This document shows positions 11,655-29,997 of a DNA stretch of 32,000 nt, in pieces (position 1 is the stretch's first letter; the number at the start of each line of letters is the position of its first letter). The DNA is from a bacterium (GTDB lineage Bacteria; Chloroflexota; Dormibacteria; Aeolococcales; Bog-877). The notes below the pieces were generated by a model, which worked only from the letters and a program-made list of their open reading frames with translations, was not told the DNA's origin and made no database searches. The position numbers were made by a program, and so were the translations under genes. The stretch spans positions 28,650 to 60,649 of the forward strand of contig JAJYPP010000014.1 in assembly GCA_021795235.1 (NCBI GenBank), in the 5' to 3' direction.

Positions 11655-11730
11655 GCCCTCGTAGCTCAGGGGATAGAGCAGCGGTTTCCTAAACCGCGTG
11701 TCGCAGGTTCAAGTCCTGCCGGGGGCACCA
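11655..11730 (+). tRNA. tRNA-Arg (anticodon CCT), 76 nt with encoded CCA
   Basis: Folded manually. Acceptor stem GCCCTCG/CGGGGGC with one G-U pair. D arm GCTC-AGGGGATA-GAGC. Anticodon stem GCGGT/ACCGC with loop TTCCTAA (CCT at 11688-11690). Variable loop GTGTC. T arm GCAGG-TTCAAGT-CCTGC. Discriminator A, then CCA. Confidence 0.9.
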
Positions 11731-11731
11731 G
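11682..11731. repeat. attL: 50-bp direct repeat covering the 3' part of tRNA-Arg
   Basis: cggtttcctaaaccgcgtgtcgcaggttcaagtcctgccgggggcaccag is repeated exactly at 29948-29997. Confidence 0.85.
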
Positions 11732-11797
11732 TTTTGAGATCAAAACTGAGGCAGCCGAGTGCCACAGCGTGCCTCCAGTACCCCTGATGTGACGCAC

Positions 11798-11821: not shown

Positions 11822-11838
11822 GTGGTACAGTAGCTGCA

Positions 11839-12945
11839 GTGGCCGAGAAGGCACGTCCCGGGCGGAAGAAGGGCGCCGGCTTCAAGCGGGCAGACGGCCT
11901 CTGGGTGGTCCGTTGGACTGGCACCGACGGGCGCCGGCACGCAGCCACCGGCCACTCGGCCGCTGAGGCGAGAAGGAAGGCCGAACACAAGCGTGGTGAG
12001 TGGCAGCCGGCCCAAGCCGGCACCCTCAAGGCGTTCGCCGATCGGTGGCTCGAGGAGAAGCGAGCGTCTCTGAAGCCACGGACTTGGCTCCGGTACGAGC
12101 AGCTGATCAGGGTCCACGTGATCCCGACCCTGGGTGGGAAGCAGCTTGCCAAGATTACCGAAGGCGACTTGGACTCCCTGTACGCGGGGTTCAGAGCGAG
12201 CGGGATGAACTCGACCACCCAAGCTCACGCGGCCACCGTCCTGGGGACGATGCTGGAGGCGGCCCGGCGAAGGAAGCTGATCCAGGAGAATCCGGTCCGG
12301 AACGTGCCGAAGCCGCGCATGGCCCATTCCGAGATGCACATCCTCTCGGAGCACGAGGCCCGGGCCCTCCTTGAGGCCGCGAAAGGCGACGGGCTCGAGG
12401 CCCTCTACGTGCTCGCCCTGACGACCGGCATGAGGCTGGGTGAACTGCTCGCCCTGAAGTGGAGCGACATCGACCTGGCCCGTGGTGTGGTCCACGTCCG
12501 CGGGGCGGTCACCGTCGGCTGGACGGGGAAGCTACAAGTGATGGCGCCGAAGACCCAGCGCAGCCGCAGGGACATCCCACTCGTCCCAATGGCGGTGGAA
12601 GCGGTCACAAGTCGTCGAGAGCGAGTCGGATCGGGACCGTCTGATCTCCTCTTCCCAGGGAGAGGCGGCTACATGTCGGGCAGCACCGTCTACGTCGCCT
12701 TCCGCCGGCTTCTGGAAGAGGCGGGCCTGCCTCGGGTCCGCTTCCACGACCTGAGACATACGGCGGCGACGCTGCTTCTGGCGCGTGGAGTGTCCGCGCA
12801 CGTCGTGGCCGGGCTGTTGGGGCACGCAAGCGTATCGACCACCCTCGGGGTGTACGGTCACGTGACGCGCGGCCTGGAGGCTCAGGCGGCTACCCAGATC
12901 CAGGAGATCTTCGCCACACCGTCTTCGTCGACACCCACCTCCTGA
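11839..12945 (+). CDS. int: tyrosine recombinase / phage-type integrase
   Basis: 368 aa with an N-terminal SAM-like domain. The C-terminal catalytic region reads ...LALTTGMRLGELLALKW...RFHDLRHTAATLLLARGVSAHVVAGLLGHASVSTTLGVYGHV (R..HxxR..Y). GTG start. Confidence 0.95.
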   Translation: MAEKARPGRKKGAGFKRADGLWVVRWTGTDGRRHAATGHSAAEARRKAEHKRGEWQPAQAGTLKAFADRWLEEKRASLKPRTWLRYEQLIRVHVIPTLGGKQLAKITEGDLDSLYAGFRASGMNSTTQAHAATVLGTMLEAARRRKLIQENPVRNVPKPRMAHSEMHILSEHEARALLEAAKGDGLEALYVLALTTGMRLGELLALKWSDIDLARGVVHVRGAVTVGWTGKLQVMAPKTQRSRRDIPLVPMAVEAVTSRRERVGSGPSDLLFPGRGGYMSGSTVYVAFRRLLEEAGLPRVRFHDLRHTAATLLLARGVSAHVVAGLLGHASVSTTLGVYGHVTRGLEAQAATQIQEIFATPSSSTPTS

Positions 12946-13102
12946 GACCGTCTTCCGGGAGCCGCATGATCGATCCGCACCAGACCACCGGCAGTTCGCC
13001 AGCGTCCACCATCCGGTAGATCGTGCGCTTCGAGAGGCCCAGCATGGCCGCGGCTTCCGGCACGGTTCGAAGCAACTTGGGTGGCGCCTCCATTGTCGAC
13101 AC
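12890..13102 (-). CDS. xis: excisionase / MerR-AlpA-type helix-turn-helix DNA-binding protein
   Basis: 70 aa, with LLRTVPEAAAMLGLSKRTIYRMVDAGELPVV typical of excisionase-family HTH. It abuts the rep stop and overlaps the int 3' end convergently (12890-12945). Confidence 0.75.
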   Translation of the reverse strand: MSTMEAPPKLLRTVPEAAAMLGLSKRTIYRMVDAGELPVVWCGSIMRLPEDGLRRWVSTKTVWRRSPGSG

Positions 13103-14218
13103 TCAGATGGACGGCTCTCGCTCGGTGACACGGCAGCGGCCGGCACCGGCGACCTCGACCCTCTGCCGGCGCTTGCGAGCCACGATGGCAGCAAAGTCCT
13201 CGCCCTTCCGCTCGAGATAGCTGGGAACGCCGGGCACCGTCCTGGCCAGGGCCGCTCCGACCCCAGGGGCCGCCCCCAGCGCAGCCAGGCTGGAGGCATA
13301 GCCCACCAGTCCCCGGATTATCCGCAGCTCGTCGGCCGACCGGACCATGTCCCGCACCAGTGGCGTGGTGGGCGAGCCTATCTCGGCCTGGCAGATCGCG
13401 GCCCACTCCCGAGCCTCCGGCCAGCGGGCCCGGTTCGAGTCGGAGGTCGGGATCCGCAGCGAGAGCCACTGGGTGCCGTAGTGCCAGAGCTCCTGGCGGC
13501 TGGCGAGCGCCTCGGCCGGAGTTGAGCACCCCAGAGATACCAGCGAGCGGCGCCGGAACTGAAATTCGACCCGCCACACGGGCTGGTCTTGGTCCCAGTC
13601 CACCCACAGTGCCTTGGGCCACTCGGAGCCGCGGACGCTGAGCTCCATGGTCTTGTCGTAGCAGCGGGCCATCAGGTCGCCGCCGCCGAAGACGAAGCCG
13701 CTGGCCCTGCGTCCGCGCAGGTGGGCCTGGTCGTAGATCGGCACGGAGTACGTTCGCCGCCGGACGGCCCGGCAGTGGAACTTCTCGAAGTCCTCCATTA
13801 CCGGCAACCAGCCCTGGGTGTCGCAGTAAAGGTCGAGACGGGATACCCCAAGCACCGGCTCATCACGCATCACGTTGGCGGCCAGCCACTCGGAGATCTC
13901 AGCCGCGGCCTGGTCCGCTCCTCTGGAGTGCAGATAGGCAGAGTGAGCCTGGATGAACACCGGCGGGAACGGGGCTGGCGCCCCAATCGCCACCTCGATG
14001 TTGGGAGAGCTGGCCCAGAACGGATAGCTCCTCCAACCGTGGGGGCGCAGGGCAACCGAGAGTGACTGCTCGCCCCAGGTGACCACCTGGAGCTCCTTGG
14101 TACGCTGAGACTCCTCCTTGAGTGCCTCGAGGAAGACCAGCAGCCCGTCCTGAAGCTCGCCACGGACGGAGCAGTGGAGGGTGTCGACCCCAGCGCTCAG
14201 AATCTTGAGATCTTCCAT
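13103..14218 (-). CDS. rolling-circle replication initiator (Rep_trans / RepSA-like)
   Basis: Blocks VSRLDLYCDTQGW, ARCYDKTMEL and VWRVEFQFRR match the Rep_trans replication initiation factor pattern. I place the start at ATG 14218 (MEDLKILSAGVDTLHC), which overlaps the tra stop (TAATG), rather than at the track start 14314. Confidence 0.8.
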   Translation of the reverse strand: MEDLKILSAGVDTLHCSVRGELQDGLLVFLEALKEESQRTKELQVVTWGEQSLSVALRPHGWRSYPFWASSPNIEVAIGAPAPFPPVFIQAHSAYLHSRGADQAAAEISEWLAANVMRDEPVLGVSRLDLYCDTQGWLPVMEDFEKFHCRAVRRRTYSVPIYDQAHLRGRRASGFVFGGGDLMARCYDKTMELSVRGSEWPKALWVDWDQDQPVWRVEFQFRRRSLVSLGCSTPAEALASRQELWHYGTQWLSLRIPTSDSNRARWPEAREWAAICQAEIGSPTTPLVRDMVRSADELRIIRGLVGYASSLAALGAAPGVGAALARTVPGVPSYLERKGEDFAAIVARKRRQRVEVAGAGRCRVTEREPSI

Positions 14219-15585
14219 TACGATGGATCCAAGAGTTCGTCTGAAGGGGGGCACGTATTTTCCCACCACTGTGTGACAGGGCCAGTGGTGGGTGGGACGC
14301 CCCCGGCACCCCACCTCGCCAGCAGCAGCTCCCGGCTCTCCTCGACCGAGCAGTCGACCGCCTGGAACTCCTCTGTGGTCTCATGGGCGAAGACCGCCCG
14401 GCCCGGGTGCGGCGGCAGCAGAGAGGCTTTGTCGCTGTCGAGCAGGATGAAGCTGTTCACGGCGGCTCTGACCCGGAAGGCGACGGTGCCGTCGAGGTTG
14501 GCCTTCAGCTGCCCCGGCACGGCCTCGGCATCCGGTCTCTGAGTGCAGCAGACGAGGTGGATGTCCACCGATCTCCCGAGCCTGGCGATCTCACAGAGCC
14601 GCCCGGTGGCCGCCTGTTGGGCGGCACGGGCGGCCCGGTCGTCGCCAAGGTCGCGGACCGTCAGTTCGGCCACCTCGTCCACCACGACCAGGATCCGGGG
14701 CCAGGTGGCTGGGGCAGCTGAGTCCCCCGCCTCCACCGAGCGCCTGACCGCGGATAGCCGCCGGTCCAGCTCATCCCGGACGCGACTCAGAGTCTCCGCA
14801 GCTGCCGCCACGGTGTCGGCGACCGGGTAGAGGGCATGCGGCAACAGGCCGAAATAGGCGAGCTCAACGCCTCCCTTGAGGTCGATGAGCGCCAGCCGCA
14901 GCCGCTCCGGAGGGTGGTCGCAGCAGAGGAAGGTCAGGGCCTGGCGCAGGAAGACGCTCTTGCCCTGCCCGGTCATGCCTCCCACCAGCAGATGAGGGCA
15001 TGAGTCCAGGTCGACCCAGAGAGCGCCACGCCGTCCTCGCCCCAGGCCCACCAGGCAGCGCCCATGGGGACGGGGCCCGGAGTAGAAGGTGCGGTAGGGG
15101 ACCTGGTCCGGGATCTGGTGCCGGAGCACCTCCATCACCAGCGAGCCCGGCTCCTCCCAGCAGCGCAGCGCACAGTCGCACCTCGCCTCGAGCGAGCTTT
15201 GCCGGACCAGGACGTCGGCCAGGGTCACCCCCGGAGGCATCCGCCAGCGCAGGGTGACGTTGCGACCGACCCACTGGCTGCCGAGACTGGCCCGGGGCAG
15301 GACGATCCTGCCCCGGGCATCGCGGCCCACCAGCCCGGACTCCGCCATGGCCCGCCGCAGCCTGGCCGCGACCGACCAGTGCCGGCGGTGCATGGTCAGG
15401 GCGAGGACGAAGACCGTGACCACCCCGGTCGCGACCCCCGTGATCCCCTCCGGCCAGCCCAGGGCTCCGGTCACATATGGGGTTACCAGGAAAGCCCAGA
15501 CCGCGGGCTGGCGCACAACCGAGAGCAGGATCCGAACCGGATCCCACCACTCCTTGCGCTCGGTCGTGTACCGGGCCCCCATCAC
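14218..15585 (-). CDS. FtsK/SpoIIIE-family DNA translocase (TraSA/TraB-like conjugal transfer protein)
   Basis: 455 aa with N-terminal TM helices. Walker A is LLVGGMTGQGKSVFL and Walker B is ILVVVDEVAEL. This is the single-ATPase dsDNA transfer protein typical of AICEs. Confidence 0.9.
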   Translation of the reverse strand: MMGARYTTERKEWWDPVRILLSVVRQPAVWAFLVTPYVTGALGWPEGITGVATGVVTVFVLALTMHRRHWSVAARLRRAMAESGLVGRDARGRIVLPRASLGSQWVGRNVTLRWRMPPGVTLADVLVRQSSLEARCDCALRCWEEPGSLVMEVLRHQIPDQVPYRTFYSGPRPHGRCLVGLGRGRRGALWVDLDSCPHLLVGGMTGQGKSVFLRQALTFLCCDHPPERLRLALIDLKGGVELAYFGLLPHALYPVADTVAAAAETLSRVRDELDRRLSAVRRSVEAGDSAAPATWPRILVVVDEVAELTVRDLGDDRAARAAQQAATGRLCEIARLGRSVDIHLVCCTQRPDAEAVPGQLKANLDGTVAFRVRAAVNSFILLDSDKASLLPPHPGRAVFAHETTEEFQAVDCSVEESRELLLARWGAGGVPPTTGPVTQWWENTCPPSDELLDPS

Positions 15586-17545: not shown

Positions 17546-17595
17546 AGAACTCTCGTGCGGAGTTTGGACAGCAGTTCCCCTGCCGACCCAGTCAT
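17546..17595 (-). pseudogene. remnant of the first ~16 codons of a second TrkA_N-RyR gene copy
   Basis: ATG 17595 gives MTGSAGELLSKLRTRV, compared with MTRSAGELLSKLRTRV at 24263. Homology stops at 17546 and the frame terminates after 26 codons. Confidence 0.6.
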
Positions 17596-17657
17596 CCCTG
17601 TGCCCCCTTCTGCCAGTTGGCACCAGCGCAGTGTCTCGACCAGTGCGGCTGAGTTCG

Positions 17658-20600
17658 CTAGCCATTCCTCTTAGCCACCACCGTAGCCAGGGCGTCCTGC
17701 ACACCGCCAATGAGAGGATGGCCCGGGGGCAGCGCCTGACTGTATATCTCCAGCGCCTCACGGAACAGCCCCTCCGCCTCGTCGAGGCGCCCCTGTCGCG
17801 CGGCCGAAATGGCCAGGTTGCAGAGCGAGGCGGCATTGTCCGGATGGCCAGGGGGCAGCGACTGGCGGCGCATCGCCTGCGCCTCCCGTTGCAGCCCCTC
17901 CGCTTCCTCGTAGCGACCGTGGGCCCTGACCACAACGGCCAGGCTGCTGAGTGAGGTCGCGATGTCCGGATGTCCCGGGGGCAGCGCCTGGCGGCGTATC
18001 TCCAGCGCCTCACGAAGCAGCCCCTCCGCTTCCTCGTAGCGCCCCTGGGCCCTGACCACAATCGCCAGGTTGCTGAGCGAGGCGGCGATGTCCGGATGGG
18101 CCGCCGGCAGCGCATTGCGGACCATCACCAACGCCTCCCGGTACAGCCCCTCCGCTTCCTCGTAGCGCCCCTGGGCAAAGACCGCCTGTGCCAGGTTGTT
18201 GAGCGAGGCGGCGATGGCCGGATGGCTCGGAGGCAGCGCCTGACGGTATGTCTCCAGCGCCTCACGAAGCAGTCCCTCCGCTTCCTCGTAGCGACCCTGG
18301 ACCCTGACCACAATCGCCAGGCTGTTGAGCGAGTTCGCGATGTCCGGATGGCCCGGGGGCAGCGCCTGACGGAGTATCTCCAGCGCCTCCCGGTGCAGCC
18401 CCTCCGCTTCCTCGTAGCGCCCCTGGGCCCTGACCACAACGGCCAAGTTGTTGAGCGAGTTCGCGATGGCCGGATGGCCCTGAGGCAGCGCCAGGCGGCT
18501 TATCTCCAGCGACTCCCGGTGCAGCCCCTCCGCTTCCTCGTAGCGCCCCTGGGCAAAGACCGCCTGTGCCAGGTTGCTGAGCGAGGCGGCGATGTCTGGA
18601 TGGCCCGGGGGCAGCGCCTGGCGAAGTATCTCCAGCGCCTCCCGGTTCAGCCCCTCCGCTTCATCGTGGCGCCCCTGGGCCTGGACCACGCCGGCCAAGT
18701 TGTTGAGCGAGACGGCGATGGCCGGATGCGCCGCCGGCAGCGCCTGGCGGCTTATCTCCAGCGCCTCCCGGTGCAGCCCCTCCGCTTCCTCGTTGCGGCC
18801 CTGGGCAAAGACCGCCTTTGCCAGGTTGTTGAGTGAGTTCGCGATGGCCGGATGGCCCGCCGGCAGGGCCTCGCGGCGAATCTCCAGCGCCTCCCGGTTC
18901 AGCCCCTCCGCTTCCTGGTAGCGCCCCTGGGCCCGGACCACAGTGGCCAGGTTGCTGACCGAGGTGGCGATGTCTGGATGGCCCGGGGGCCGCGCCTTGC
19001 GGAATATCTCCAGCGCCTCCCGGTGCAGCCCCTCCGCTTCCTCGTAGCGCCCCTGGACAAAGACCACACCAGCCAGGTTGTCGAGCGAGGCGCCGTTGAC
19101 CGGATGGCCCGGGGGCAGCGCCTCGCGGCGTATCTCCAGCGCCTCCCGGTGCAGCCCCTTCGCTTCGTCGTAGCGCCCCTGGGCAGAGACCGCCTGTGCC
19201 AGGTTGTTGAGCGAGACGGCGATGGCCGGATGGCCCGGTGGCAGAGCCTGGCGGCCTATCTCCAGCGCCTCCCGGTGCAACCCCTCCGCTTCGCCGTAGC
19301 GCCCCTGGGCCTGGACCACATTGGCCAGGTCGTTGAGCGAGGTGGCGATGGCCGGATGGCCCGCAGGCAGATGGAAGCGGGCCCACACCAGGTTCGCCTC
19401 CGCCCAGGCGCCAGCGAGGGGAAGGAAGCTCATCTGACGCAACAAGCTGCTGACAGCGCTGACGCCTCCGAGCGATCCCCAGTCCACATCGGCTGCGCCC
19501 CACTGGCTCGCTAGCCGCTGGAGGTCCTCTGACACCTCTGCCCGGCCGGCGCCCAGCACCCCCAGCGCCAGCGTCAGGACCCCGGGGTCGCTCGTGGCCA
19601 GCGCCGCGACATGAGCTGGGGCGGCCAGATCAGCCAGAATCCCCTGATGGTCCTCAAGTCGGGCCCGCTGATAGACGCGCTCAGTCAGACTGCGGTCATC
19701 TTCCCCGTCGAAGTAGTCGATGAGGCGGCGTCGCGTGCGTGCTTCCTGGCCTGCCGGGAGGGCGCCGGCGCCAAGGGCAGCGTGCATCAGCGCCTGCATC
19801 CCTGCGTTGCGCAACAGGTACGGCGCCATCCATGTGAGAAGAGGCCGGAGCACGGGGTCCGCCACCCGGGGCCGGTGACTCGCGGGATCGATGGGGTCCG
19901 TCTCGTGGGCCATCAACTCGGCCAGCTCGCGATCCTCAAGCCCCCGGTAGCTGGCCGCCAGAAGGCCAGCCAGCTCTTGGGCCGGATGGCTGTGGTCGGC
20001 GTTGGGAAAGTCAGCGGCAAAGTCCTCGTCCAACTCTCGCAGCAGCGCTTCGAACAGGCGCGCCGGAGTCGGCCGCTGGAGCCGCTCGCGAAGCCTGAGC
20101 GGCAGGTCTTGATGGGTGGCGTGCACCCGCAGGTCCTCCAGCACCAGACGCAGGTACAGCGGGTTCGCGCATGCGGGATTGCCTGTCAGCTCCCCGACCA
20201 GCTCCTTCGGCAGGGCGTGGCGGTAGCTCTTGGTCACCTCCACGATGATCCGCTCCCTTTCCTTCGCCGTGGGTTGGCGGAGCTCCAGCGTCTCGAACAG
20301 CACCAAGCGGCTGCCTCGCTCGTCGGCCAGAGTCGCCACCAGTTGCACCCCCGGGGGCCAGACCAGCGCTCCCAGACGATCGAGGGCACCCGGGGGATCA
20401 ATGAGTTGATCCACCCCGTCGAGCATCAGCACAATCCCCGTGCTCAGCTTGGCCGTGGCCGCGGTGAGCTCGGACGCGAACCACTCCCACGGGTCTGTCG
20501 AGCCCGGGGGTTCTGTCTCCGTCCCCAGGTGCTCGAGCACCCGCACCCGCCAGCTCTCCAGACCGCGCTCCCCATCGGCGCCCACGAAGTGGGTGATGAC

Positions 20601-21488
20601 CGTGGCCCCGAGCTCGTCGCGTGCGCGGCCCGCAACGTGGGCGAGGAGGCTGCTCTTGCCGAGCCCAGAGGCCCCCGTGACCAGGATCGGACCCGGGGCC
20701 TCACCCGCCAGGTGAGCACGCAGCCGGCCAAGCAGCCCGTCCTCAAAGTCCACCAGCGGCAGGTAGCCCTCGAGGCGCACTGCCGCGAAGTGGTCGTGAG
20801 CAGCGTCCCGACGCTGGCGGAGATCCGGCACCTCACTTTGAGGGAACCGCAGATCGATCGCCTTCTCCAGCTCCACCCCCAGCCGATCGCCAAGCTCCGG
20901 CAACGACCGGTACCCGTCCAGGATCACCCGGCCGCTATCGCGCAGCTCCTGCTTCAAGGCTTGGAGCTTGACCGAGGGGCCATCGCGGAACTCGCCCTCA
21001 TCAGCGGCGCGGGCCTGCTGCAACTCCTCGGTCAGCGCCGGGTCGCGCAGGAAGAAGTAAGCGTGCTCGCGCATTTGGGGCGCCTCCAGCACCCCGAAGC
21101 GCATTTCCAGCTCGGTGACGCTCTCCCCCTGGTCAAGCGCCCTAGCGATACGCTCCCCGTAGGCCGAGTCGTGCCGCCTCTCCCAGTAGGCCGCGACGTC
21201 CTCTCGCCTCGGCACCCAGCCATACCGCTCCCCCAGGATGCCCACAAAGAAGGGCGGATGCTCCCGGCAGCGCTCAATCTCCTCCAAGCACACCTCGACG
21301 GTCCGCCCGTTCTTGGCGTCCTCTTCCTCGATCCCCCACCTCAGGTCGATCTCCACGAAGGCCACGCCGCGCTCTCGACAGTGCGCCCTCAGCGCCGGGA
21401 AGACATGGGTCAACAGCCAGCTGCGCTCGTCCTCCATGTCGCGAAACGTCGACGACACAAACACCCGCACCTCGCGCTCCGTACTCAT
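17658..21488 (-). CDS. STAND/NLR-like ATPase, copy 1: DUF4062-like N-domain, P-loop NTPase (NACHT/NB-ARC-like) and 13 x 42-aa TPR
   Basis: Same length (1276 aa) as copy 2, and residues 1-583 are identical to it. The start is placed at MSTEREVRVF (ATG 21488, ATGA overlap with the upstream ORF) rather than the track start 21647. Walker A is GASGLGKS and Walker B is IVLMLDGVD. The TPR units resemble GHPDIAxSLNNLAxVVxAQGRYEEAEGLxREALEIxRQALPP. Confidence 0.85.
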   Translation of the reverse strand: MSTEREVRVFVSSTFRDMEDERSWLLTHVFPALRAHCRERGVAFVEIDLRWGIEEEDAKNGRTVEVCLEEIERCREHPPFFVGILGERYGWVPRREDVAAYWERRHDSAYGERIARALDQGESVTELEMRFGVLEAPQMREHAYFFLRDPALTEELQQARAADEGEFRDGPSVKLQALKQELRDSGRVILDGYRSLPELGDRLGVELEKAIDLRFPQSEVPDLRQRRDAAHDHFAAVRLEGYLPLVDFEDGLLGRLRAHLAGEAPGPILVTGASGLGKSSLLAHVAGRARDELGATVITHFVGADGERGLESWRVRVLEHLGTETEPPGSTDPWEWFASELTAATAKLSTGIVLMLDGVDQLIDPPGALDRLGALVWPPGVQLVATLADERGSRLVLFETLELRQPTAKERERIIVEVTKSYRHALPKELVGELTGNPACANPLYLRLVLEDLRVHATHQDLPLRLRERLQRPTPARLFEALLRELDEDFAADFPNADHSHPAQELAGLLAASYRGLEDRELAELMAHETDPIDPASHRPRVADPVLRPLLTWMAPYLLRNAGMQALMHAALGAGALPAGQEARTRRRLIDYFDGEDDRSLTERVYQRARLEDHQGILADLAAPAHVAALATSDPGVLTLALGVLGAGRAEVSEDLQRLASQWGAADVDWGSLGGVSAVSSLLRQMSFLPLAGAWAEANLVWARFHLPAGHPAIATSLNDLANVVQAQGRYGEAEGLHREALEIGRQALPPGHPAIAVSLNNLAQAVSAQGRYDEAKGLHREALEIRREALPPGHPVNGASLDNLAGVVFVQGRYEEAEGLHREALEIFRKARPPGHPDIATSVSNLATVVRAQGRYQEAEGLNREALEIRREALPAGHPAIANSLNNLAKAVFAQGRNEEAEGLHREALEISRQALPAAHPAIAVSLNNLAGVVQAQGRHDEAEGLNREALEILRQALPPGHPDIAASLSNLAQAVFAQGRYEEAEGLHRESLEISRLALPQGHPAIANSLNNLAVVVRAQGRYEEAEGLHREALEILRQALPPGHPDIANSLNSLAIVVRVQGRYEEAEGLLREALETYRQALPPSHPAIAASLNNLAQAVFAQGRYEEAEGLYREALVMVRNALPAAHPDIAASLSNLAIVVRAQGRYEEAEGLLREALEIRRQALPPGHPDIATSLSSLAVVVRAHGRYEEAEGLQREAQAMRRQSLPPGHPDNAASLCNLAISAARQGRLDEAEGLFREALEIYSQALPPGHPLIGGVQDALATVVAKRNG
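17661..19364. repeat. 126-bp tandem coding repeat array (13 TPR units plus a C-terminal cap) of NLR copy 1
   Basis: A 42-codon periodicity is visible in the protein. All frames on both strands stay open across the array. Confidence 0.9.
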
Positions 21489-21859
21489 GGTTCCTCCACC
21501 ACCCGATAGGTCTTGCTGAAGACGCCGCTTCCGACGACCCCGACATCGCCGGGGGCGTACTGAACCAGCCAGTCCCCCGCCTGTCCGACTAGCACCCCAC
21601 CGGACGGCAATTCGACGCTGATCGGCGCCTGCTCCGCCGAGATGCACACAGCCCAGATCGTTTCAGCGCGCGCGACGTACCGCCCGTCATCTCCCCAGTT
21701 CGTGCCGACAACCGGCCGATATCGCGCCGCGAAGACTGCCCGCTCGACCGGCCAGTGCTCCCCTTCCACCCCGGTCAGGATCGCGTCCCCCGCAACGTAG
21801 GGGAACCAGCCCCTCCCGGGTGGCCACGGTCCCTGCTGCCCTGGCGAAGGTGGCCTCCA
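21485..21859 (-). pseudogene. PGDYG-like small gene, copy 1: 5'-truncated and frameshifted
   Basis: Matches 28153-28526. It has a 4-G run (21800-21803) where copy 2 has 3 G (28468-28470). This splits ...EATFARAAGTVATREGLVP and YVAGDAILTGVEGEHWPVER... into different frames. Homology, and hence the N-terminus and promoter, ends at 21859. Confidence 0.65.
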
Positions 21860-21879
21860 GAGAACTGGACATGAGGGGG

Positions 21880-22418
21880 TCAAGCGGCGCGTTCCGAATG
21901 GTGCACCGCCACCTGATAGGTGACGGGGAGATCGGTCCCCGGGTAGGCGGGGTGGAGCTGGATGAGGTCAGCGCAGGGGCCGCGTAGAGCTCCGCGGTGC
22001 AGGGGGAGTCGGGCGGATCGAGGCTTAGGGTCATCCCCTCAGCAGTGGTGCGGATCTCGCCCGACAGCTCGGCGAAGGACCGCGGCATCTGGCGGACGTC
22101 GTCAGCACTCTGGTAGTGCGGCGCCAGCCGCTCCAGCAGCCACTCCGCGGCGATGTAGGCGGTGAGCTTGACCCGGTCCAGGATCGCCTTCTGCTGCAGC
22201 TTCGTCACGTCGTGATGGCCCACGGTCTCGAGGGGAACGTGACTGGGCAGGCGATGGCACTGCTCAAGTAGCCGGGCCAACTCCGTCTCCAGTTCCCGGA
22301 TCTTCTTCACCCCACTCCCGTGGGCGGACTTGAGGCCGCGAGCGCTGTGGGAGGAGTCCCGGCGCTCATCCAAGCGCGCCTGTCCCAGCTCCGCCCATCG
22401 GCTCACTTCGCTATCCAA
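21880..22418 (-). pseudogene. C-terminal remnant of a transposase-like gene (frameshifted)
   Basis: ...KLTAYIAAEWLLERLAPHYQSADDVRQMPRSFAELSGEIRTTAEGMTLSLDPPDSP continues in another frame as RGALRGPCADLIQLHPAYPGTDLPVTYQVAVHHSERAA-stop (TGA at 21882-21880). This resembles, from memory only, the C-terminus of a protein family usually annotated as transposase in high-GC Gram-positives. No N-terminal or DDE part is present. Confidence 0.45.
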
Positions 22419-22457: not shown

Positions 22458-24263
22458 TCACCTCAAGATCTGGCCGGGAGCATCGGGCACATGACAGACG
22501 TACCCAGCCCTACTCAACTGGTGCGGCCACGCCCTCACAATGTCCCGATTCTTTTCCTTTCCAAGCTCACTCAGAGCGCTCCATTCCACCAAGTCCGGAT
22601 GAAGACGTGCGGCTTCATCGCGGACCTCTCCAAAGCGCCACCCTTGGCGCTTCTTCTGCACAGTCCACCGCTCATGTTCCACCCGCGCCAGTTGCTCAAC
22701 GAACTCCGGCCACATGTCAGCGCCAATACTACTGTCCCCTGGTCGCACCCGAGCCACGCGATAACCAGCGCCCGCAAGCGAGCTGAATATCGAGTAGGCT
22801 TGCTCGCGGTTCGTCTCCTTCAGCCCTAGGTCCAACTCCTCCCACGGTTTGTGACTGGGCTTCTCGGGATCCAGCCTCCCCAACCTCCGTGCCTCATCAT
22901 CCAGAAAGTCCCCGTGAACCTGAATAGCAAGGCGCTCGAACAACGTTCCGCCCATCACATGTGCATACTCACATGCTCGTGCCTCAGCATCGACAAGAAC
23001 TACGCCGAACGTCTGGAGGGCCTGCCCCTGATCGGCGCTCCCGGATGTGCACACCACCTTGAGCCCCTTGAATTCGCGTTGCTCCGCAAGTGCCAGCGCC
23101 ATCGAAAGACCGGCGTCTCCCGTCATGTCGCACGCGACAATGCCGTCCGGCGCATCGGCATCCGAGCCAACCGCCCACTTGACGCGCGCATCGACTTCGG
23201 TGTCCGGGACGTCCGCCGCGCATGGCATGACCGTCACCAGCTCCGGATCGAGGTCGCGCTTCACCTTCTCAGCGAAGTCCGCGGCACCCATGCCGCCTAC
23301 GCGCAGGTCCAGGTGGGATGGTCCGCCAACGCTTGAGGTGGTCGTCGCCATCCATCGTCCCAGATCGCGCACGACTTGAGTCGCAAGCGGACCGGTTCCA
23401 ATGAGAGCGACTTTATATCTTGTAATCTTTGCGAGCCCCTCCGTGACTGTTTGCACTACCTGTTGTGCAGCAACTTCACCTGGTGAAAAGGCGTCCACGT
23501 GCACGGCGGCCGAGTCCTTCTGTCGACTCCGTGCATACACGGCCCGCAGGCGGTCGCAAGCCTCAGGGTCGGGCATCCTCGCGATGACGACCCGCGGAGT
23601 CCGACGTACGCCCCCGGTCTGGGGAACGGCTGCATGAAGCGCCGAAACGATAGCCAAGTTGGTCGCGGCAGTGCCAGTCAGGCAGAACAGCTTCGCGGCC
23701 TGCCCGATCCCCGCCTGCTTCAGCACCAATGGATCTCGGGCGTCCGACAAGATGACCGGAATGCCAAGTGTGCGAGCTGCCGTCACTCCCGCTGCGAAAG
23801 GATTCATCTCGACAGCCACAACAGCGGTATGGGGCGGCGCGGTCTGAACAAGCCGGATACCAACACTCCCCAGCCCACAGACCACAATGTGCCCCCGGTA
23901 CGTCGCGATGCGGGCGCGGTCATACGTTCGTCGGAAGGCAATAGTGAGCAGTCCAATTACGGTTGTGCCCGTGACGACCACCGCCACCAGTCGGGCCAAC
24001 TGAAGTTCCCACGACAATGCTCCAGGCGGCTTCTGGTAGTCGAAGACAAACAGGGATACCGCGTCATACACAGCCGAGGGGACACTCACTCCTTGTGCCC
24101 AGTACCCAAATGAACCCAGGGTGAAAGCAGACCCGGCCGATAAAAGGAGTGCGAACGGCCACCACGGCTGTGCGGCAGTTGACGCGCGGCGTCTGAGGTA
24201 CCTCACGTGGGGCAGAACTCTCGTGCGGAGTTTGGACAGCAGTTCACCCGCCGACCTAGTCAT
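22458..24263 (-). CDS. 2TM membrane protein with a TrkA_N/RCK NAD-binding domain, a second Rossmann-like domain and C-terminal RyR repeats
   Basis: 601 aa. TM1 is WWPFALLLSAGSAFTLGSFGYW. A pore-helix-like segment SAVYDAVSLFVFDY has no TVGYG filter. TM2 is LARLVAVVVTGTTVIGLLTIAF. Glycine loop is HIVVCGLGSVGIRLV, with a second one at KVALIGTGPLATQVV. RyR-type repeats are ...KPWEELDLGLKETNREQAYSIFSSLAGAGY and EHERWTVQKKRQGWRFGEVRDEAARLHPDLVEWSALSELGKEKNRDIV. Confidence 0.8.
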   Translation of the reverse strand: MTRSAGELLSKLRTRVLPHVRYLRRRASTAAQPWWPFALLLSAGSAFTLGSFGYWAQGVSVPSAVYDAVSLFVFDYQKPPGALSWELQLARLVAVVVTGTTVIGLLTIAFRRTYDRARIATYRGHIVVCGLGSVGIRLVQTAPPHTAVVAVEMNPFAAGVTAARTLGIPVILSDARDPLVLKQAGIGQAAKLFCLTGTAATNLAIVSALHAAVPQTGGVRRTPRVVIARMPDPEACDRLRAVYARSRQKDSAAVHVDAFSPGEVAAQQVVQTVTEGLAKITRYKVALIGTGPLATQVVRDLGRWMATTTSSVGGPSHLDLRVGGMGAADFAEKVKRDLDPELVTVMPCAADVPDTEVDARVKWAVGSDADAPDGIVACDMTGDAGLSMALALAEQREFKGLKVVCTSGSADQGQALQTFGVVLVDAEARACEYAHVMGGTLFERLAIQVHGDFLDDEARRLGRLDPEKPSHKPWEELDLGLKETNREQAYSIFSSLAGAGYRVARVRPGDSSIGADMWPEFVEQLARVEHERWTVQKKRQGWRFGEVRDEAARLHPDLVEWSALSELGKEKNRDIVRAWPHQLSRAGYVCHVPDAPGQILR

Positions 24264-24325
24264 CCCTGTGCCCCCCTCTGCCAGGTGGCACCAGCACAGT
24301 GTCTCGACCAGTGTGTCCCAGTTCG

Positions 24326-27300
24326 CTAGCCATTCCTCTTAGCCACCACCATAGCCAGGTAGTCCTGCGCGCTGGCGATGAGAGGATGGCCCGGGGGCAG
24401 CGCCTGACGGTATATCGCCAACGCTTCCCGGTACAGCCCCTCCGCTTCGTCGTAGCGCCCCTGATCCGAGACCACACTGGCCAGGTTGCTGACCGACATC
24501 GCGATGAGAGGATGGCCCGGGGGCAGCGCCTGGCGGCGCATGTCCAGCGCCTCCCGGTATAGCCCCTCCGCTTCGTCGTATCGCCCCTGAGCCGAGACCA
24601 CAATCGCCAGGTTGCTGACCGACGTGGCAATGTCCGGATGGCCCGGGGGCAGCGCCTGGCGGCTTATCTCCAGCGCCTCCCGAAGCAGCCCCTCCGCTTC
24701 GTCGTAGCGCCCTTGGGCAAGCACCGAATCTGCCAGGTTGTTGAGCGAGGCGGCGATGGCCCGATGGCCCGGGGGCAGCGCCTCGCGGCGCATCTCCAGC
24801 GCCTCCCGGTGTAGCCCCTCCGCCTCGTCGTTGCGCCCCTGGGCAAAGACCGCCTCTGCCAGGTTGTTGAGCGAGTTCGCGATGTCCGGATGGCCCGGGG
24901 GCAGCGCCTGGCGGCGCATGTCCAGCGCCTCCCGGTACAGCCCCTCCACTTCGCCGTAGCGCCCCTGGGCCTGGACCACATTGGCCAGGTTGCTGACCGA
25001 GGTGGCGATGTCCGGATGGCCCGGGGGCAGCGCCTGGCGGCGCATCTCCAGCGCATCCATGAGCAGCCCCTCCGCTTCCTCGTAGCGACCCTGGGCAAAG
25101 ACCGCCTGTGCCAGGTTGTTGAGCGAGACGGCAATGTCCGGATGGCCCGCCGGCAGCGCCTGGCGGCGTACAGCCAGCGCCTCCCGTTGCAGCCCCTCCG
25201 CTTCCTCGTAGCGACCCTGATCCGAGAACACACCGCCCAGGTTGCTGAGCGAGACGGCAATGTCCGGATGGCCCGCCGGCAGAGCCTGGCGATATATCTC
25301 CAGCGCCTCCTTGTACAGCCCCTCCGCTTCGTCGTAGCGCCCCTGATGCGAGAACACACCGCCCAGGTTGCTGACCGACTTCGCAATGTCCGGATGGCCC
25401 GGGGGCAGCGCCTTGCGGAATATCTCCAGCGCCTCCCGTTGCAGCCCCTCCGCTTCCTCGTAGCGACCCTGGGCAAAGACCGCCTGTGCCAGGTTGTTGA
25501 GCGAGTTCGCGATGTCCGGATGTCCCGGGGGCAGCGCCTGACGGCGCATCTCCAGCGCATCCATGAGCAGCCCCTCCGCTTCGCCGTAGCGCCCCTGGGC
25601 GAAGACCACAGTGGCCAGGTTGCTGACCGAGGCGGCAATGTCCGGATGGCCCAGGTGCAGAGCCTGGCGATATATCTCCAGCGCCTCCCGGCGCAGCCCC
25701 TCCGCTTCGCCGTAGCGACCCTGATCCGAGACCACACCGGCCAGGTTGCTGACCGAGGCGGCGATGGCCGGATGGCCCGCCGGCAGCGCCTGGCGGAGCA
25801 TCTCCAGCGCCTCCTTGTACAGCCTCTCCGCCTCCTCGTAGCGACCCTGGGCCCTGACCACATTGGCCAGGTTGCTGAGCGAGGTGGCGATGTCCGGATG
25901 GCCCGCCGGCAGCGCCTGGCGGCGTACAGCCAGCGCCTCCCGTTGCAGCCCCTCCGCTTCCTCGTAGCGACCCTGGGCAAAGACCGCCTGTGCCAGGTTG
26001 TTGAGCGAGTTCGCGATGTCCGGATGTCCCGGGGGCAGGTGGAAGCGGGCCCATGCCAGGTTCGCCTCCGCCCAGGCACCGGCGAGGGGAAGGAAGCTCA
26101 TCCCATACAACAAGCTGCTGACAGCGCTGACGCCGCCGAGCGATCCCCAGTCCACATCGGCTTCGCCCCAGTGGCTTGCAAGCTGCTGGAGGTCCTCTGA
26201 CACCTCTGCCCGGCCGGCGCCCAGCACCCCCAGCGCCTGCGTCAGGACCCCGGGGTCGCTCGTGGCCAGCGCGGCGACATGAGCTGGGGCGGCCAGATCA
26301 GCCACAATCCCCTGGTGGTCCTCAAGTCGGGCCCGCTGATAGAGGCGCTCAGTCAGGCCACGGTCATCTTCCCCGTCGAAGTAGTCGATGAGGTGGCGTC
26401 GCGTGGGTGCTTCCTGGCCTGCCGGGAGGGCGCCGGCGCCAAGGGCAGCGTGCATCAGCGCCTGCATCCCTGCGTTGCGCAACAGGTACGGCGCCATCCA
26501 TGTGAGAAGAGGCCGGAGCACGGGGTCCGCCACCCGGGGCCGGTGACTCGCGGGATCGATGGGGTCCGTCTCGTGGGCCATCAACTCGGCCAGCTCGCGA
26601 TCCTCAAGCCCCCGGTAGCTGGCCGCCAGAAGGCCAGCCAGCTCTTGGGCCGGATGGCTGTGGTCGGCGTTGGGAAAGTCAGCGGCAAAGTCCTCGTCCA
26701 ACTCTCGCAGCAGCGCTTCGAACAGGCGCGCCGGAGTCGGCCGCTGGAGCCGCTCGCGAAGCCTGAGCGGCAGGTCTTGATGGGTGGCGTGCACCCGCAG
26801 GTCCTCCAGCACCAGACGCAGGTACAGCGGGTTCGCGCATGCGGGATTGCCTGTCAGCTCCCCGACCAGCTCCTTCGGCAGGGCGTGGCGGTAGCTCTTG
26901 GTCACCTCCACGATGATCCGCTCCCTTTCCTTCGCCGTGGGTTGGCGGAGCTCCAGCGTCTCGAACAGCACCAAGCGGCTGCCTCGCTCGTCGGCCAGAG
27001 TCGCCACCAGTTGCACCCCCGGGGGCCAGACCAGCGCTCCCAGACGATCGAGGGCACCCGGGGGATCAATGAGTTGATCCACCCCGTCGAGCATCAGCAC
27101 AATCCCCGTGCTCAGCTTGGCCGTGGCCGCGGTGAGCTCGGACGCGAACCACTCCCACGGGTCTGTCGAGCCCGGGGGTTCTGTCTCCGTCCCCAGGTGC
27201 TCGAGCACCCGCACCCGCCAGCTCTCCAGACCGCGCTCCCCATCGGCGCCCACGAAGTGGGTGATGACCGTGGCCCCGAGCTCGTCGCGTGCGCGGCCCG

Positions 27301-28156
27301 CAACGTGGGCGAGGAGGCTGCTCTTGCCGAGCCCAGAGGCCCCCGTGACCAGGATCGGACCCGGGGCCTCACCCGCCAGGTGAGCACGCAGCCGGCCAAG
27401 CAGCCCGTCCTCAAAGTCCACCAGCGGCAGGTAGCCCTCGAGGCGCACTGCCGCGAAGTGGTCGTGAGCAGCGTCCCGACGCTGGCGGAGATCCGGCACC
27501 TCACTTTGAGGGAACCGCAGATCGATCGCCTTCTCCAGCTCCACCCCCAGCCGATCGCCAAGCTCCGGCAACGACCGGTACCCGTCCAGGATCACCCGGC
27601 CGCTATCGCGCAGCTCCTGCTTCAAGGCTTGGAGCTTGACCGAGGGGCCATCGCGGAACTCGCCCTCATCAGCGGCGCGGGCCTGCTGCAACTCCTCGGT
27701 CAGCGCCGGGTCGCGCAGGAAGAAGTAAGCGTGCTCGCGCATTTGGGGCGCCTCCAGCACCCCGAAGCGCATTTCCAGCTCGGTGACGCTCTCCCCCTGG
27801 TCAAGCGCCCTAGCGATACGCTCCCCGTAGGCCGAGTCGTGCCGCCTCTCCCAGTAGGCCGCGACGTCCTCTCGCCTCGGCACCCAGCCATACCGCTCCC
27901 CCAGGATGCCCACAAAGAAGGGCGGATGCTCCCGGCAGCGCTCAATCTCCTCCAAGCACACCTCGACGGTCCGCCCGTTCTTGGCGTCCTCTTCCTCGAT
28001 CCCCCACCTCAGGTCGATCTCCACGAAGGCCACGCCGCGCTCTCGACAGTGCGCCCTCAGCGCCGGGAAGACATGGGTCAACAGCCAGCTGCGCTCGTCC
28101 TCCATGTCGCGAAACGTCGACGACACAAACACCCGCACCTCGCGCTCCGTACTCAT
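24326..28156 (-). CDS. STAND/NLR-like ATPase, copy 2: DUF4062-like N-domain, P-loop NTPase (NACHT/NB-ARC-like) and 13 x 42-aa TPR
   Basis: 1276 aa. N-terminus reads VRVFVSSTFRDMEDERSWLLTHVFPALR...FFVGILGERYGWVP (DUF4062-like). Walker A GASGLGKS is encoded at 27320-27343. Walker B is IVLMLDGVD. A helical linker follows, then the TPR array from about aa 709. The ATG overlaps the stop of the upstream small gene. Confidence 0.9.
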   Translation of the reverse strand: MSTEREVRVFVSSTFRDMEDERSWLLTHVFPALRAHCRERGVAFVEIDLRWGIEEEDAKNGRTVEVCLEEIERCREHPPFFVGILGERYGWVPRREDVAAYWERRHDSAYGERIARALDQGESVTELEMRFGVLEAPQMREHAYFFLRDPALTEELQQARAADEGEFRDGPSVKLQALKQELRDSGRVILDGYRSLPELGDRLGVELEKAIDLRFPQSEVPDLRQRRDAAHDHFAAVRLEGYLPLVDFEDGLLGRLRAHLAGEAPGPILVTGASGLGKSSLLAHVAGRARDELGATVITHFVGADGERGLESWRVRVLEHLGTETEPPGSTDPWEWFASELTAATAKLSTGIVLMLDGVDQLIDPPGALDRLGALVWPPGVQLVATLADERGSRLVLFETLELRQPTAKERERIIVEVTKSYRHALPKELVGELTGNPACANPLYLRLVLEDLRVHATHQDLPLRLRERLQRPTPARLFEALLRELDEDFAADFPNADHSHPAQELAGLLAASYRGLEDRELAELMAHETDPIDPASHRPRVADPVLRPLLTWMAPYLLRNAGMQALMHAALGAGALPAGQEAPTRRHLIDYFDGEDDRGLTERLYQRARLEDHQGIVADLAAPAHVAALATSDPGVLTQALGVLGAGRAEVSEDLQQLASHWGEADVDWGSLGGVSAVSSLLYGMSFLPLAGAWAEANLAWARFHLPPGHPDIANSLNNLAQAVFAQGRYEEAEGLQREALAVRRQALPAGHPDIATSLSNLANVVRAQGRYEEAERLYKEALEMLRQALPAGHPAIAASVSNLAGVVSDQGRYGEAEGLRREALEIYRQALHLGHPDIAASVSNLATVVFAQGRYGEAEGLLMDALEMRRQALPPGHPDIANSLNNLAQAVFAQGRYEEAEGLQREALEIFRKALPPGHPDIAKSVSNLGGVFSHQGRYDEAEGLYKEALEIYRQALPAGHPDIAVSLSNLGGVFSDQGRYEEAEGLQREALAVRRQALPAGHPDIAVSLNNLAQAVFAQGRYEEAEGLLMDALEMRRQALPPGHPDIATSVSNLANVVQAQGRYGEVEGLYREALDMRRQALPPGHPDIANSLNNLAEAVFAQGRNDEAEGLHREALEMRREALPPGHRAIAASLNNLADSVLAQGRYDEAEGLLREALEISRQALPPGHPDIATSVSNLAIVVSAQGRYDEAEGLYREALDMRRQALPPGHPLIAMSVSNLASVVSDQGRYDEAEGLYREALAIYRQALPPGHPLIASAQDYLAMVVAKRNG
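24329..26032. repeat. 126-bp tandem coding repeat array (13 TPR units plus a cap) of NLR copy 2
   Basis: 42-aa periodicity. Internal duplicated blocks are present: EAEGLLMDALEMRRQALPPGHPDIA occurs twice and EAEGLQREALAVRRQALPAGHPDIA occurs twice. Confidence 0.9.
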
Positions 28157-28602
28157 GGTTCCTCCACCACCCGATAGGTCTTGCTGAAGACGCCGCTTCC
28201 GACGACCCCGACATCGCCGGGGGCGTACTGAACCAGCCAGTCCCCCGCCTGTCCGACTAGCACCCCACCGGACGGCAATTCGACGCTGATCGGCGCCTGC
28301 TCCGCCGAGATGCGCACAGCCCAGATCGTTTCAGCGCGCGCGACGTACCGGCCGTCATCTCCCCAGTTCGTGCCGACAACCGGCTGATATCGCGCCCCAA
28401 AGGCTGCCCGCTCGACGGGCCAGTGCTCCCCCTCCACCCCGGTCAGGATCGCGTCCCCCGCGACGTAGGGAACCAGCCCCTCCCGGGTGGCCACGGTCCC
28501 TGCTGCCCTGGCGAAGGTGGCCTCCACCGGCAGACCCCGCTTGCGCACACGCACGGCCCCCGGCTGCTGCGCTAGGTCCGACCCGGGATCAAAGCTGTTC
28601 AC
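28153..28602 (-). CDS. small PGDYG-like protein (intact copy), first gene of the NLR cassette
   Basis: ...RKRGLPVEATFARAAGTVATREGLVPYVAGDAILTGVEGEHWPVERAAFGARYQPV...LVGQAGDWLVQYAPGDVGVVGSGVFSKTYRVV matches my recollection of the PGDYG family (Pfam PF14083) of bacteria and phages. The GTG 28602 start is uncertain and internal GTGs are possible. The stop overlaps the NLR ATG. Confidence 0.6.
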   Translation of the reverse strand: MNSFDPGSDLAQQPGAVRVRKRGLPVEATFARAAGTVATREGLVPYVAGDAILTGVEGEHWPVERAAFGARYQPVVGTNWGDDGRYVARAETIWAVRISAEQAPISVELPSGGVLVGQAGDWLVQYAPGDVGVVGSGVFSKTYRVVEEP

Positions 28603-29947: not shown

Positions 29948-29997
29948 CGGTTTCCTAAACCGCGTGTCGCAGGTTCAAGTCCTGCCGGGGGCACCAG
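29948..29997. repeat. attR: displaced 3' part of tRNA-Arg (50-bp direct repeat)
   Basis: Exact copy of 11682-11731. No 5' tRNA half lies upstream, so this is not a functional tRNA. Confidence 0.85.

Follow-up and report, generated by a model that had tools for sequence, protein, structure and literature searches.

In clusters of plant resistance (R) genes of the nucleotide-binding site and leucine-rich repeat (NBS-LRR) type, tandem paralogues undergo conversion and unequal crossing-over, and the solvent-exposed residues of their repeats are under diversifying selection. Here we describe a bacterial locus that bears comparison with such clusters, namely two tandem genes for NLR-like receptors, NLR-A and NLR-B, found in positions 28,650 to 60,649 (forward strand) of contig JAJYPP010000014.1 (GenBank assembly GCA_021795235.1; Chloroflexota, Dormibacteria, Aeolococcales, Bog-877). 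This stretch of 32,000 nucleotides is the window, to which all coordinates below refer. Fungal NLRs with conserved tetratricopeptide (TPR), ANK or WD repeats, such as the nwd/het-e and NB-ARC-TPR proteins of Podospora, are built of repeat units that are similar at the DNA level and reshuffled within and possibly between paralogues, and a few concave positions of the repeats are positively selected (Paoletti 2007; Chevanne 2010; Dyrka 2014, PMC4986451). Dyrka et al. mapped the positively selected TPR sites to the concave face on a kinesin-light-chain template (PMC4986451). Bacterial NLRs with 80-90% identical units were described later, and the same regime of rapid diversification was proposed, though untested, there (Dyrka et al. 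2020, bioRxiv 10.1101/2020.01.06.895854). As for the output domain, DUF4062, renamed NIR, was characterised as a TIR-like NADase that converts NAD+ into ADP-ribose (ADPR) and nicotinamide (2026 preprints including bioRxiv 10.64898/2026.09.04.749371 and 10.64898/2026.05.01.722283), and Avs and further NLR-like proteins with anti-phage activity use it as their effector (three 2026 preprints).

Our reading of the locus, to which we assign a probability of about three in four, is that the two NLR-like receptors lie in tandem on an integrative element and derive from an older duplication, that their signalling chassis was recently homogenised by a gene conversion of 1907 bp, and that their repeat arrays were reshuffled and selected on the concave face. 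The pair shares with the fungal NLRs the tripartite layout and TPR_10 units of 42 amino acids, the reshuffling of units (seen here as lost positional orthology and exchange tracts) and positive selection at concave positions (here a pairwise estimate). It differs from them in being bacterial, in residing on a mobile element and in its NIR NADase effector; in addition, the recent exchange is found within array B and not between the arrays, a perfectly converted chassis is not among the described fungal features, and the amino acid identity of the units (mean 71%) is lower than that of the fungal class (units at least 85% identical across a minimum of 100 amino acids). Tandem paralogues, exchange between the copies and diversifying selection on the repeats are common to the plant R genes, of which the repeats are LRR and not TPR, and in which exchange often hits the repeats, whereas the repeat arrays here escape homogenisation. 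Compared with the bacterial NLRs surveyed in 2020, no Bell or amyloid partner accompanies the receptors, the upstream gene with a 4-bp overlap being of the PGDYG family instead, and the regime appears within one genome through the paralogue pair. Altogether, the evolutionary mode is already known in fungal and plant receptors and was predicted for bacterial NLR-like proteins from the fungal work; what is new is a clean bacterial example on a mobile element, in which reshuffling and binding-face selection are seen in one genome with an internal control. The features on which the argument turns are listed below.

17658..21488, reverse strand: NLR-A gene, 1276 amino acids; Pfam, translation and motifs place DUF4062/NIR at residues 8-165, Walker A GASGLGKS at 272-279, a linker at 584-705, and 13 full and 1 partial TPR_10 units of 42 amino acids at 706-1276
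24326..28156, reverse strand: NLR-B gene, 1276 amino acids, with the same architecture as NLR-A (Pfam and translation)
17546..21860, reverse strand: whole duplicated unit, copy A, about 4.3 kb, comprising the 3' five-sixths of the PGDYG gene, the NLR gene and about 110 nucleotides past the NLR stop (identity profile and boundary scan)
24214..28527, reverse strand: copy B of the duplicated unit as a whole, delimited by the same identity profile and boundary scan
19739..21645, reverse strand: identical block, copy A, an exact run of 1907 nucleotides with no synonymous differences, spanning the last 52 sense codons and the stop of the PGDYG relic and NLR-A codons 1-583
26407..28313, reverse strand: identical block, copy B, the same exact run with no synonymous differences; the short-read contig L001 ends 140 nucleotides inside both blocks
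19374..19738, reverse strand: linker A (residues 584-705), the 3' flank of the block, with its counterpart at 26042-26406; nucleotide identity 93-95%, dS 0.11, omega 0.47

An ungapped self-comparison of the window at an offset of 6668 aligned 19739-21645 with 26407-28313 with 0 differences over 1907 nucleotides, and the second-longest exact run at this offset was 53 nucleotides. The identity of this run and the sharpness of its borders hold to the base. A first-pass annotation, made from the letters and their translations, had pointed out a block of about 1.9 kb without nucleotide differences over the N-domain and the NTPase, and its coordinates, as well as the sameness of residues 1-583, proved exact. 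The differences it had reported in the upstream flank were all recovered, namely A at 21646 versus G at 28314, further substitutions and a 1-nucleotide indel near 21800. The substitutions it had listed in the linker are likewise present, except that residue 587 is the same in both proteins and the change from R to H lies at residue 588. In NLR-A, codons 1-583 in the block encode the NIR domain, the NTPase and a helical module.

Identity in 100-nucleotide windows fell to 92-98% directly on either side of the block, to 76-86% across the arrays, and to background beyond about 17546 and about 21860. At the protein level, residues 1-583 are the same in NLR-A and NLR-B, whereas residues 584-705 differ at 12 of 122 positions, the 13 full TPR units at 153 of 546 and the tail at 5 of 25. 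The flanks outside the arrays carry 35 differences in 582 nucleotides (6.0%), from which about 115 differences would be expected in the block (Poisson P(0) = 1.6e-50); the probability that 35 randomly placed differences leave a gap of 1907 nucleotides is bounded at 3e-21. Evenly spread divergence had been named in the first-pass annotation as a pattern that would refute its proposal; the alignment shows a block of 0% between flanks of 6% instead.

The absence of silent differences bears on the cause of this identity. In codons 1-583, the two copies agree at every one of about 449 synonymous sites (dS 0). We also compared the window with two contigs of a related strain in ENA (L084 and L085), which cover the PGDYG gene and the first 235 nucleotides of the block. 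In these contigs, 16 of the 235 sampled block bases (6.8%) differ from both copies in the window and, consequently, the block is not intrinsically invariant. In the 214-nucleotide flank, 12 mismatches were found, and the related strain carries the A-type allele at 6 of the 10 sites at which A and B differ. The flank differences between A and B are therefore polymorphisms that are old and shared, and did not arise as fresh mutations. As an explanation of the identity, purifying selection was ruled out by the dS of 0 over 449 silent sites against 0.11 in the linker, together with the 6.8% divergence of the related strain within the block. The data support intragenomic gene conversion, not constraint, as the probable origin of the identical block, in agreement with the earlier proposal of a conversion that homogenised the signalling module: the contrast between block and flanks extends to silent and non-coding sites, and the related strain is diverged in the block. 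An account that dispenses with conversion would have the entire 4.3-kb unit duplicated very recently and everything outside the block diverged fast afterwards. The arrays are clearly fast-evolving, as this account needs, but the linker and the upstream flank carry silent and non-coding differences at 6% (dS 0.11), beyond what selection at the protein level can produce, and the A alleles at 6 of 10 flank sites in the related strain make these differences older than a recent duplication. We regard it as very improbable.

Over window positions 28079-28968 as a whole, the divergence of the related strain is a mosaic, with 1 mismatch in 441 nucleotides upstream of the duplicated unit of copy B, 12 in 214 and 16 in 235, and with copy-A alleles at the B locus. 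This suggests recombination between strains or between the copies at the locus. The NLR gene of that strain starts with GTG.

Exact repeats of this length can also be produced by assembly, if near-identical copies were collapsed and one consensus (or a homogenising polish) was written into both places. Several observations suit such an artefact. In assemblies made from short reads of the same population, the contigs break off at the block, and no public assembly contains the NLR proteins in full length. A contig described below (L002) indicates that the locus is able to yield chimeric joins. The interior of the block is seen to be identical in the assembly of the window itself, the outer 140 nucleotides at each border being what the short-read contigs confirm. 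On the other hand, the borders are sharp and lie at the same offset in both copies. L001, a contig assembled by MEGAHIT from short reads, is 100% identical to the window over 5043 nucleotides (26547-21505), including all of array B, and ends exactly 140 nucleotides (k-1) inside each block, as expected where an assembly graph meets an exact repeat. Moreover, a collapsed node presupposes near-identical copies, so that the contrast with the 6% flanks would stand even if a few differences were hidden. An assembly artefact is thus improbable in our judgement, and gene conversion is retained as the preferred explanation of the block.

The region downstream of the linker evolves in a different manner. 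Each receptor carries 13.6 TPR units of 42 amino acids of the kinesin-light-chain type, in the same register in both genes, and Tandem Repeats Finder reported a period of 126 nucleotides with 13.1 and 13.2 copies and 81-82% matches in the two arrays.

17736..19373, reverse strand: TPR array A, 13 in-frame units of 126 nucleotides (residues 706-1251), with a partial 14th unit at 17661-17735; Tandem Repeats Finder period 126, 13.1 copies, 81% matches
24404..26041, reverse strand: TPR array B, 13 in-frame units of 126 nucleotides, with exact internal tracts of 109 nucleotides (B01/B05) and 86 nucleotides (B01/B07)

If the arrays had simply diverged from a common copy, units at the same position should resemble each other most. 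Same-position units of A and B match at 103.3 of 126 nucleotides on average, as compared with 102.4 for non-corresponding units of A and B and 103.0 for pairs within an array. When the 28 scaffold codons were considered alone, the identity was 89.2% for same-position units and 89.2% for the others (permutation p = 0.53). The positional correspondence between arrays A and B has been lost through the reshuffling of units. The arrays do differ at a large number of positions, as noted in the first-pass annotation (the 153 of 546 residues given above), with the refinement that they are not positional counterparts that have diverged, repeat k being no closer to repeat k than to the others. In a permutation null in which codon columns were exchanged among units (300 permutations), the longest run within an array was 66 nucleotides, shorter than the 109- and 86-nucleotide tracts of array B, and the longest tract shared by A and B (46 nucleotides) was no longer than the null. 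There is detectable recent exchange within array B, and none was detected between the arrays.

Targeted hypermutation by a diversity-generating retroelement is another route to variable repeats, and in multicellular bacteria, putative antigen sensors are diversified by elements of this kind (PMC10907252). We ruled it out here and give it practically no credence: adenine is not favoured among the mismatches (in either copy, 20-22% of the differences have A as the mismatched base), no reverse transcriptase was found among the open reading frames (ORFs) scanned, and the variation is spread over 26 units with no layout of a template and a variable region.

Silent diversity is uneven across the codon columns of the arrays (17736-19373 and 24404-26041), the proportion of synonymous differences (pS) ranging from 0 to 0.64, and looks like that of a few old silent polymorphisms shuffled among units. 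A further contig from NCBI (L002; GCA_027345705.1, DAHWGB010000146.1) corresponds to window 19879-19288 joined to 24991-21505. In it, unit B09 follows linker A with unit A01, the two parts meeting in a stretch of 42 nucleotides that they share, and the contig is 100% identical to the window on both sides of the join. The resulting hybrid array is 8 units shorter. L002 is either an assembly chimera or a real product of unequal recombination in the population, and represents at most a candidate for a polymorphism of repeat number between strains.

Within the 42-residue unit, entropy peaks at positions 11, 14, 18, 21 (and 22), 33 and 40, while positions 6, 12, 16, 24, 25, 28 and 32 are invariant. 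To guard against circularity, an independent set of hypervariable positions was defined from the arrays of P0008, P0117 and P0009, three distant homologues in which the units of an array resemble one another, and comprised positions 8, 11, 12, 18, 22, 33 and 40. The entropy profiles of these arrays correlate with those of the arrays in the window (Spearman 0.52-0.59). By pairwise Nei-Gojobori counting, the nonsynonymous divergence (dN) at the homologue-defined set is 2.39 times the array-wide synonymous divergence (dS), with a bootstrap interval of 2.05-2.75, and the ratio is similar within A (2.52), within B (2.33) and between A and B (2.35). Random sets of 7 columns had a median of 0.76 and reached 2.39 with P = 0.0005. 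Over all estimates made for the homologue-defined set, the ratio spanned 2.0-2.4.

The structural context was taken from an AlphaFold2 model of residues 685-1049 (predicted local distance difference test score, pLDDT, 93), in which helix A corresponds to unit positions 7-22 and helix B to 26-42. The best Foldseek matches of the array model are the cargo-binding TPR domains of the kinesin light chains KLC1/2, the template that had served for the mapping of the fungal sites (PMC4986451). Position 1 of the Pfam TPR_1 profile aligns to unit position 10 and, therefore, unit positions 11, 14, 18, 21 and 22 equal the canonical TPR positions 2, 5, 9, 12 and 13. The latter form the variable, ligand-contacting concave face of TPRs (Magliery and Regan, PMC1261162). 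Amino acid replacement thus appears to be favoured at a few concave codons predicted to bind the ligand, which lends support to the diversifying selection on the sensor that the first-pass annotation had offered as an alternative, given the ratio of 2.39 at independently chosen codons and the canonical concave location of the hypervariable positions on helix A. The same annotation had specified a low dN/dS over the TPRs with changes confined to packing positions as the contrary outcome; the packing residues are conserved instead, and the dN/dS over the whole arrays is 0.70. Arrays A and B probably bind different ligands.

Taken together, the most economical history comprises an older duplication, now about 6% diverged, a continuing shuffling of the arrays with selection, and a recent conversion of 1.9 kb. 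In this scheme, a unit of 4.3 kb would have been duplicated and the copies would have drifted to about 6% divergence, before homologous recombination, recent and non-reciprocal, overwrote 1907 bp of one paralogue with the sequence of the other. Besides the NADase, the NTPase and the helical module, the conversion tract would have taken in the 3' end of the PGDYG gene upstream, and the differences in the signalling chassis would have been erased by it; a conversion of the RecA type is the likely mechanism. The TPR arrays would have escaped homogenisation, and recombination among the 126-nucleotide units and selection at the concave codons would have diversified the sensors. As a result, the two receptors would share one output module and differ in their predicted ligand specificities.

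The following points weigh against this reading. The comparison with the related strain is limited to 235 nucleotides, the 5' 12% of the block, and the interior of the block depends on one assembly as described above. The dN/dS values were estimated pairwise by the Nei-Gojobori method, on repeats that recombine, and do not come from a recombination-aware site model, the array-wide dN/dS is below 1 (0.70), and hypervariable positions 33 and 40 lie on helix B and are not canonical concave positions. As for the receptors themselves, no NTPase clade passes its Pfam cut-off (NACHT 18.3 bits versus 26.7; AAA_16 26.0 bits versus 32.6), the closest homologues found, with the same NIR-STAND-TPR layout, are 43-45% identical, and the PADLOC 2023 models returned no specific defence match, including Avs, for any gene of the locus, the generic PDLC01169 'TPR' being the sole match.

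Some of these points suit a neutral explanation of the array differences, in which unconstrained surface residues are shuffled by recombination with no adaptive diversification. The array-wide ratio of 0.70 is in line with it, pairwise methods may mislead on recombining repeats, and the hypervariable TPR positions are the least constrained ones in TPRs generally (PMC1261162). It accounts poorly for the dN at independently chosen codons, which is 2.4 times the array-wide dS with a lower bound of 2.05 and P = 0.0005. In addition, the identity of the units is lower in amino acids (71% in pairwise mean, range 55-90%) than in nucleotides (82%), and the same positions are hypervariable in separate lineages. 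We consider the neutral explanation unlikely, and selection on the concave face is retained.

Between perfect direct repeats of 1.9 kb, RecA-dependent recombination can be expected to delete or amplify the segment that they enclose. As the repeats are prone to such events, the pair is either recent in its present form or kept by selection. Mobile elements, as this locus shows, carry expandable sensor repertoires, and the 1.9-kb perfect direct repeats make such loci prone to changes in copy number. Besides, the two receptors, with their differences confined to the part that begins at residue 584, are a ready-made natural test for the TPR positions that set the specificity of NIR-type NADase defence proteins.

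Both receptors have the order of an effector, a P-loop NTPase and repeats, with Pfam locating DUF4062 at 8-95, the P-loop region at 253-393 and 13 TPR_10 units at 706-1276. DUF4062 (PF13271) was matched with 52.5 bits, above the cut-off of 24.7, in both copies. The first 160 residues of the receptors can be aligned with the NIR/DUF4062 structure of human TEP1 (11gz_A), with an E value of 4.8e-23. In this alignment, Glu126 (motif SVTELEM) is paired with the Glu of SVTEMEV in TEP1, which is E1008 if the 11gz_A chain starts at residue 896 as in the published construct, and Glu126 is invariant in the homologue alignment. The catalytic role of the NIR glutamate was reported in bioRxiv 10.64898/2026.09.04.749371.

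21111..21113, reverse strand: predicted catalytic Glu126 codon of NLR-A (SVTELEM motif, TEP1 alignment); the NLR-B codon is at 27779-27781

Walker A (GASGLGKS, 272-279) and Walker B (LMLDGVDQ, approximately 353-360) are intact in NLR-A and NLR-B, and G275, G277, K278 and D357 are invariant across 12 homologues. The P-loop region at 253-393 has weak matches below cut-off to AAA_16 and AAA_22, plus NACHT in NLR-A, and several NLR homologues carry a precomputed match to PF05729. Hence, the NTPase clade is uncertain, and we use 'NLR-like' as a label of architecture only, with an effector of the NIR type and no assignment to a named Avs family. By analogy with the tested NIR proteins, NLR-A and NLR-B are predicted to act against phages by depleting NAD+. 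The tested NIR defence proteins (NIR-Avs2, Vulcan, Vesta, Swarozyc and Evangelion; 2026 preprints) share with the pair the N-terminal DUF4062 with a catalytic glutamate, and differ from it in lacking this TPR_10 array, the tandem pairing and this host; the PADLOC 2023 Avs models do not match NLR-A or NLR-B. The pair belongs to a receptor class of which the effector was characterised only in 2026. An exact-protein look-up in public assemblies returned no record for NLR-A, NLR-B, the PGDYG-B protein or a GntR protein encoded nearby.

The GntR regulator is one of the genes that follow a tRNA-Arg gene, the others being a tyrosine integrase, an FtsK/SpoIIIE protein and a single-stranded DNA-binding protein (SSB). 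The attR site repeats the attL site exactly and, thus, we delimit an element of about 18.3 kb that holds both NLR genes.

11682..11731, forward strand: attL, 50 nucleotides at the 3' end of tRNA-Arg(CCT) (11655-11730), defined as an exact repeat; the tyrosine integrase gene is next to it (11839-12945)
29948..29997, forward strand: attR, an exact direct repeat of the 50 nucleotides of attL

An integrase beside a tRNA gene, att repeats and a transfer protein of the FtsK/SpoIIIE type are the marks of integrative elements of actinomycetes, and a replication protein was not among the genes identified. The element is integrative, possibly conjugative, and of the actinomycete type, with the NLR pair, the PGDYG genes and a RyR gene as cargo. 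The receptor locus makes up more than half of the element, and the G+C content is 67%. An ORF with LRV/HEAT repeats (28948-29781) lies at the far end of the element, and one with a PIN domain (30707-31093) just outside it.

The start codon (ATG) of each NLR gene overlaps the stop of the small upstream gene (ATGA), which belongs to the PGDYG family.

28153..28602, reverse strand: PGDYG-B gene (PF14083 by Pfam), 149 amino acids, GTG start, intact; its stop overlaps the NLR-B start (ATGA)
21485..21860, reverse strand: PGDYG-A relic, without the first 25 codons (the duplication boundary lies inside the gene) and with a 1-nucleotide insertion near 21800

The homologues of PGDYG-B are of 143-152 amino acids and cover 91-100% of it. 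In PGDYG-A, owing to the 1-nucleotide insertion, the conserved N-terminal part lies in the same frame as a dubious ORF of 243 amino acids (21687-22418). The AlphaFold2 model of PGDYG is a confident all-beta structure (pLDDT 92) with two similar halves. Searched against the solved structures in PDB, it had no fold match (E above 0.3), and it matched uncharacterised phage proteins with template-modelling (TM) scores of 0.67-0.82. As for the function, a literature search found no paper that mentions the family. Signalling through an amyloid or Bell-type partner encoded by the overlapping upstream gene was ruled out, as the NLR proteins begin directly with NIR and have no motif in common with the C-terminus of PGDYG. 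PGDYG homologues were also seen near the NLR genes in three other loci (L006, L015 and L020).

The two duplicated units are separated by 2.35 kb, which holds a gene for a membrane protein with TrkA_N and RyR domains.

22458..24263, reverse strand: TrkA_N-RyR gene, 601 amino acids, starting 62 nucleotides after the NLR-B stop (Pfam; RyR repeats in PDB with E of about 1e-22; hydropathy)

Hydrophobic segments at the N-terminus of the protein are followed by a TrkA_N Rossmann domain, and a RyR domain of the R12 type lies at its C-terminus. RyR-family genes were found in 14 of the 80 NIR-NLR loci compared, and in 7 of these, from unrelated phyla, the gene lay within about 1.1 kb (measured between stop-to-stop ORFs). 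In the reverse direction, a scan seeded with an alignment of four sequences yielded metagenome loci of the RyR family (L086-L165), of which only 3 of 80 contained DUF4062. Among the 85 ORFs that flank RyR genes in 57 of these 80 loci, TIR_2 was the commonest Pfam family (8 members), and the TIR_2 genes scanned lie directly downstream of the RyR gene and are fused to WD40, TPR or periplasmic-binding sensor domains. Phage proteins with a RyR domain (RyDEP) bind or cleave 2'/3'cADPR and hold ADPR in their pocket (PMC13232231). It is a reasonable hypothesis that the membrane RyR protein is partnered with TIR-like NAD+-consuming sensors, co-residence in defence islands being the alternative. The NIR-NLR loci with TrkA_N-RyR homologues include L037, L058, L071, L046, L076, L066 and L072.

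A bolder proposal would unite both receptors and the TrkA_N-RyR protein in one system of the Thoeris kind, in which NIR makes ADPR or a related nucleotide, and the RyR domain binds it and opens a channel-like effector or buffers the nucleotide; the identity of the two generators would then be maintained for their shared partner. A TIR-like NAD+-consuming domain stands beside a RyR-domain gene here, and this adjacency recurs in other loci, which is the likeness to Thoeris. The differences are that the NIR domains tested so far yield plain ADPR and NAD+ depletion and no signal, and that the generator is embedded in an NLR; the main text of a systematic Thoeris survey mentions no RyR or TrkA effector. 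We consider the proposal tentative and, on balance, doubtful. If it were true, a transmembrane TrkA_N-RyR protein combined with a TIR or NIR sensor would amount to a widespread defence module not described before, and nucleotide gating by RyR repeat domains would have a precedent in prokaryotes. RyR-domain membrane proteins, which occur beside TIR and NIR sensors in many phyla, could extend NAD-based immunity by a class of effectors.

Finally, we asked how often such pairs recur. A contig scan seeded with an alignment and restricted to one genome per species recovered 78 loci that encode NLR relatives, and neighbouring NLR paralogues were found in several of them (L009, L065, L082, and L005 and L017 of Zhongshania). 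The tandem paralogues of L009 share about 90% amino acid identity over the first 700-750 residues and 55-65% over the TPRs. The pair in the window is the extreme case of a recurrent mosaic, of which L009 is a milder form. In L009, which is from a gammaproteobacterial metagenome-assembled genome, the two NIR-NLR paralogues (2839-14736) flank a YbjN-peptidase M41 gene. The locus of the closest homologue (L003) holds genes for a ClpB-like AAA protein and YbjN, as well as a TrkA_N-RyR gene within 6 kb. These neighbours are possibly further accessory genes of this receptor family.

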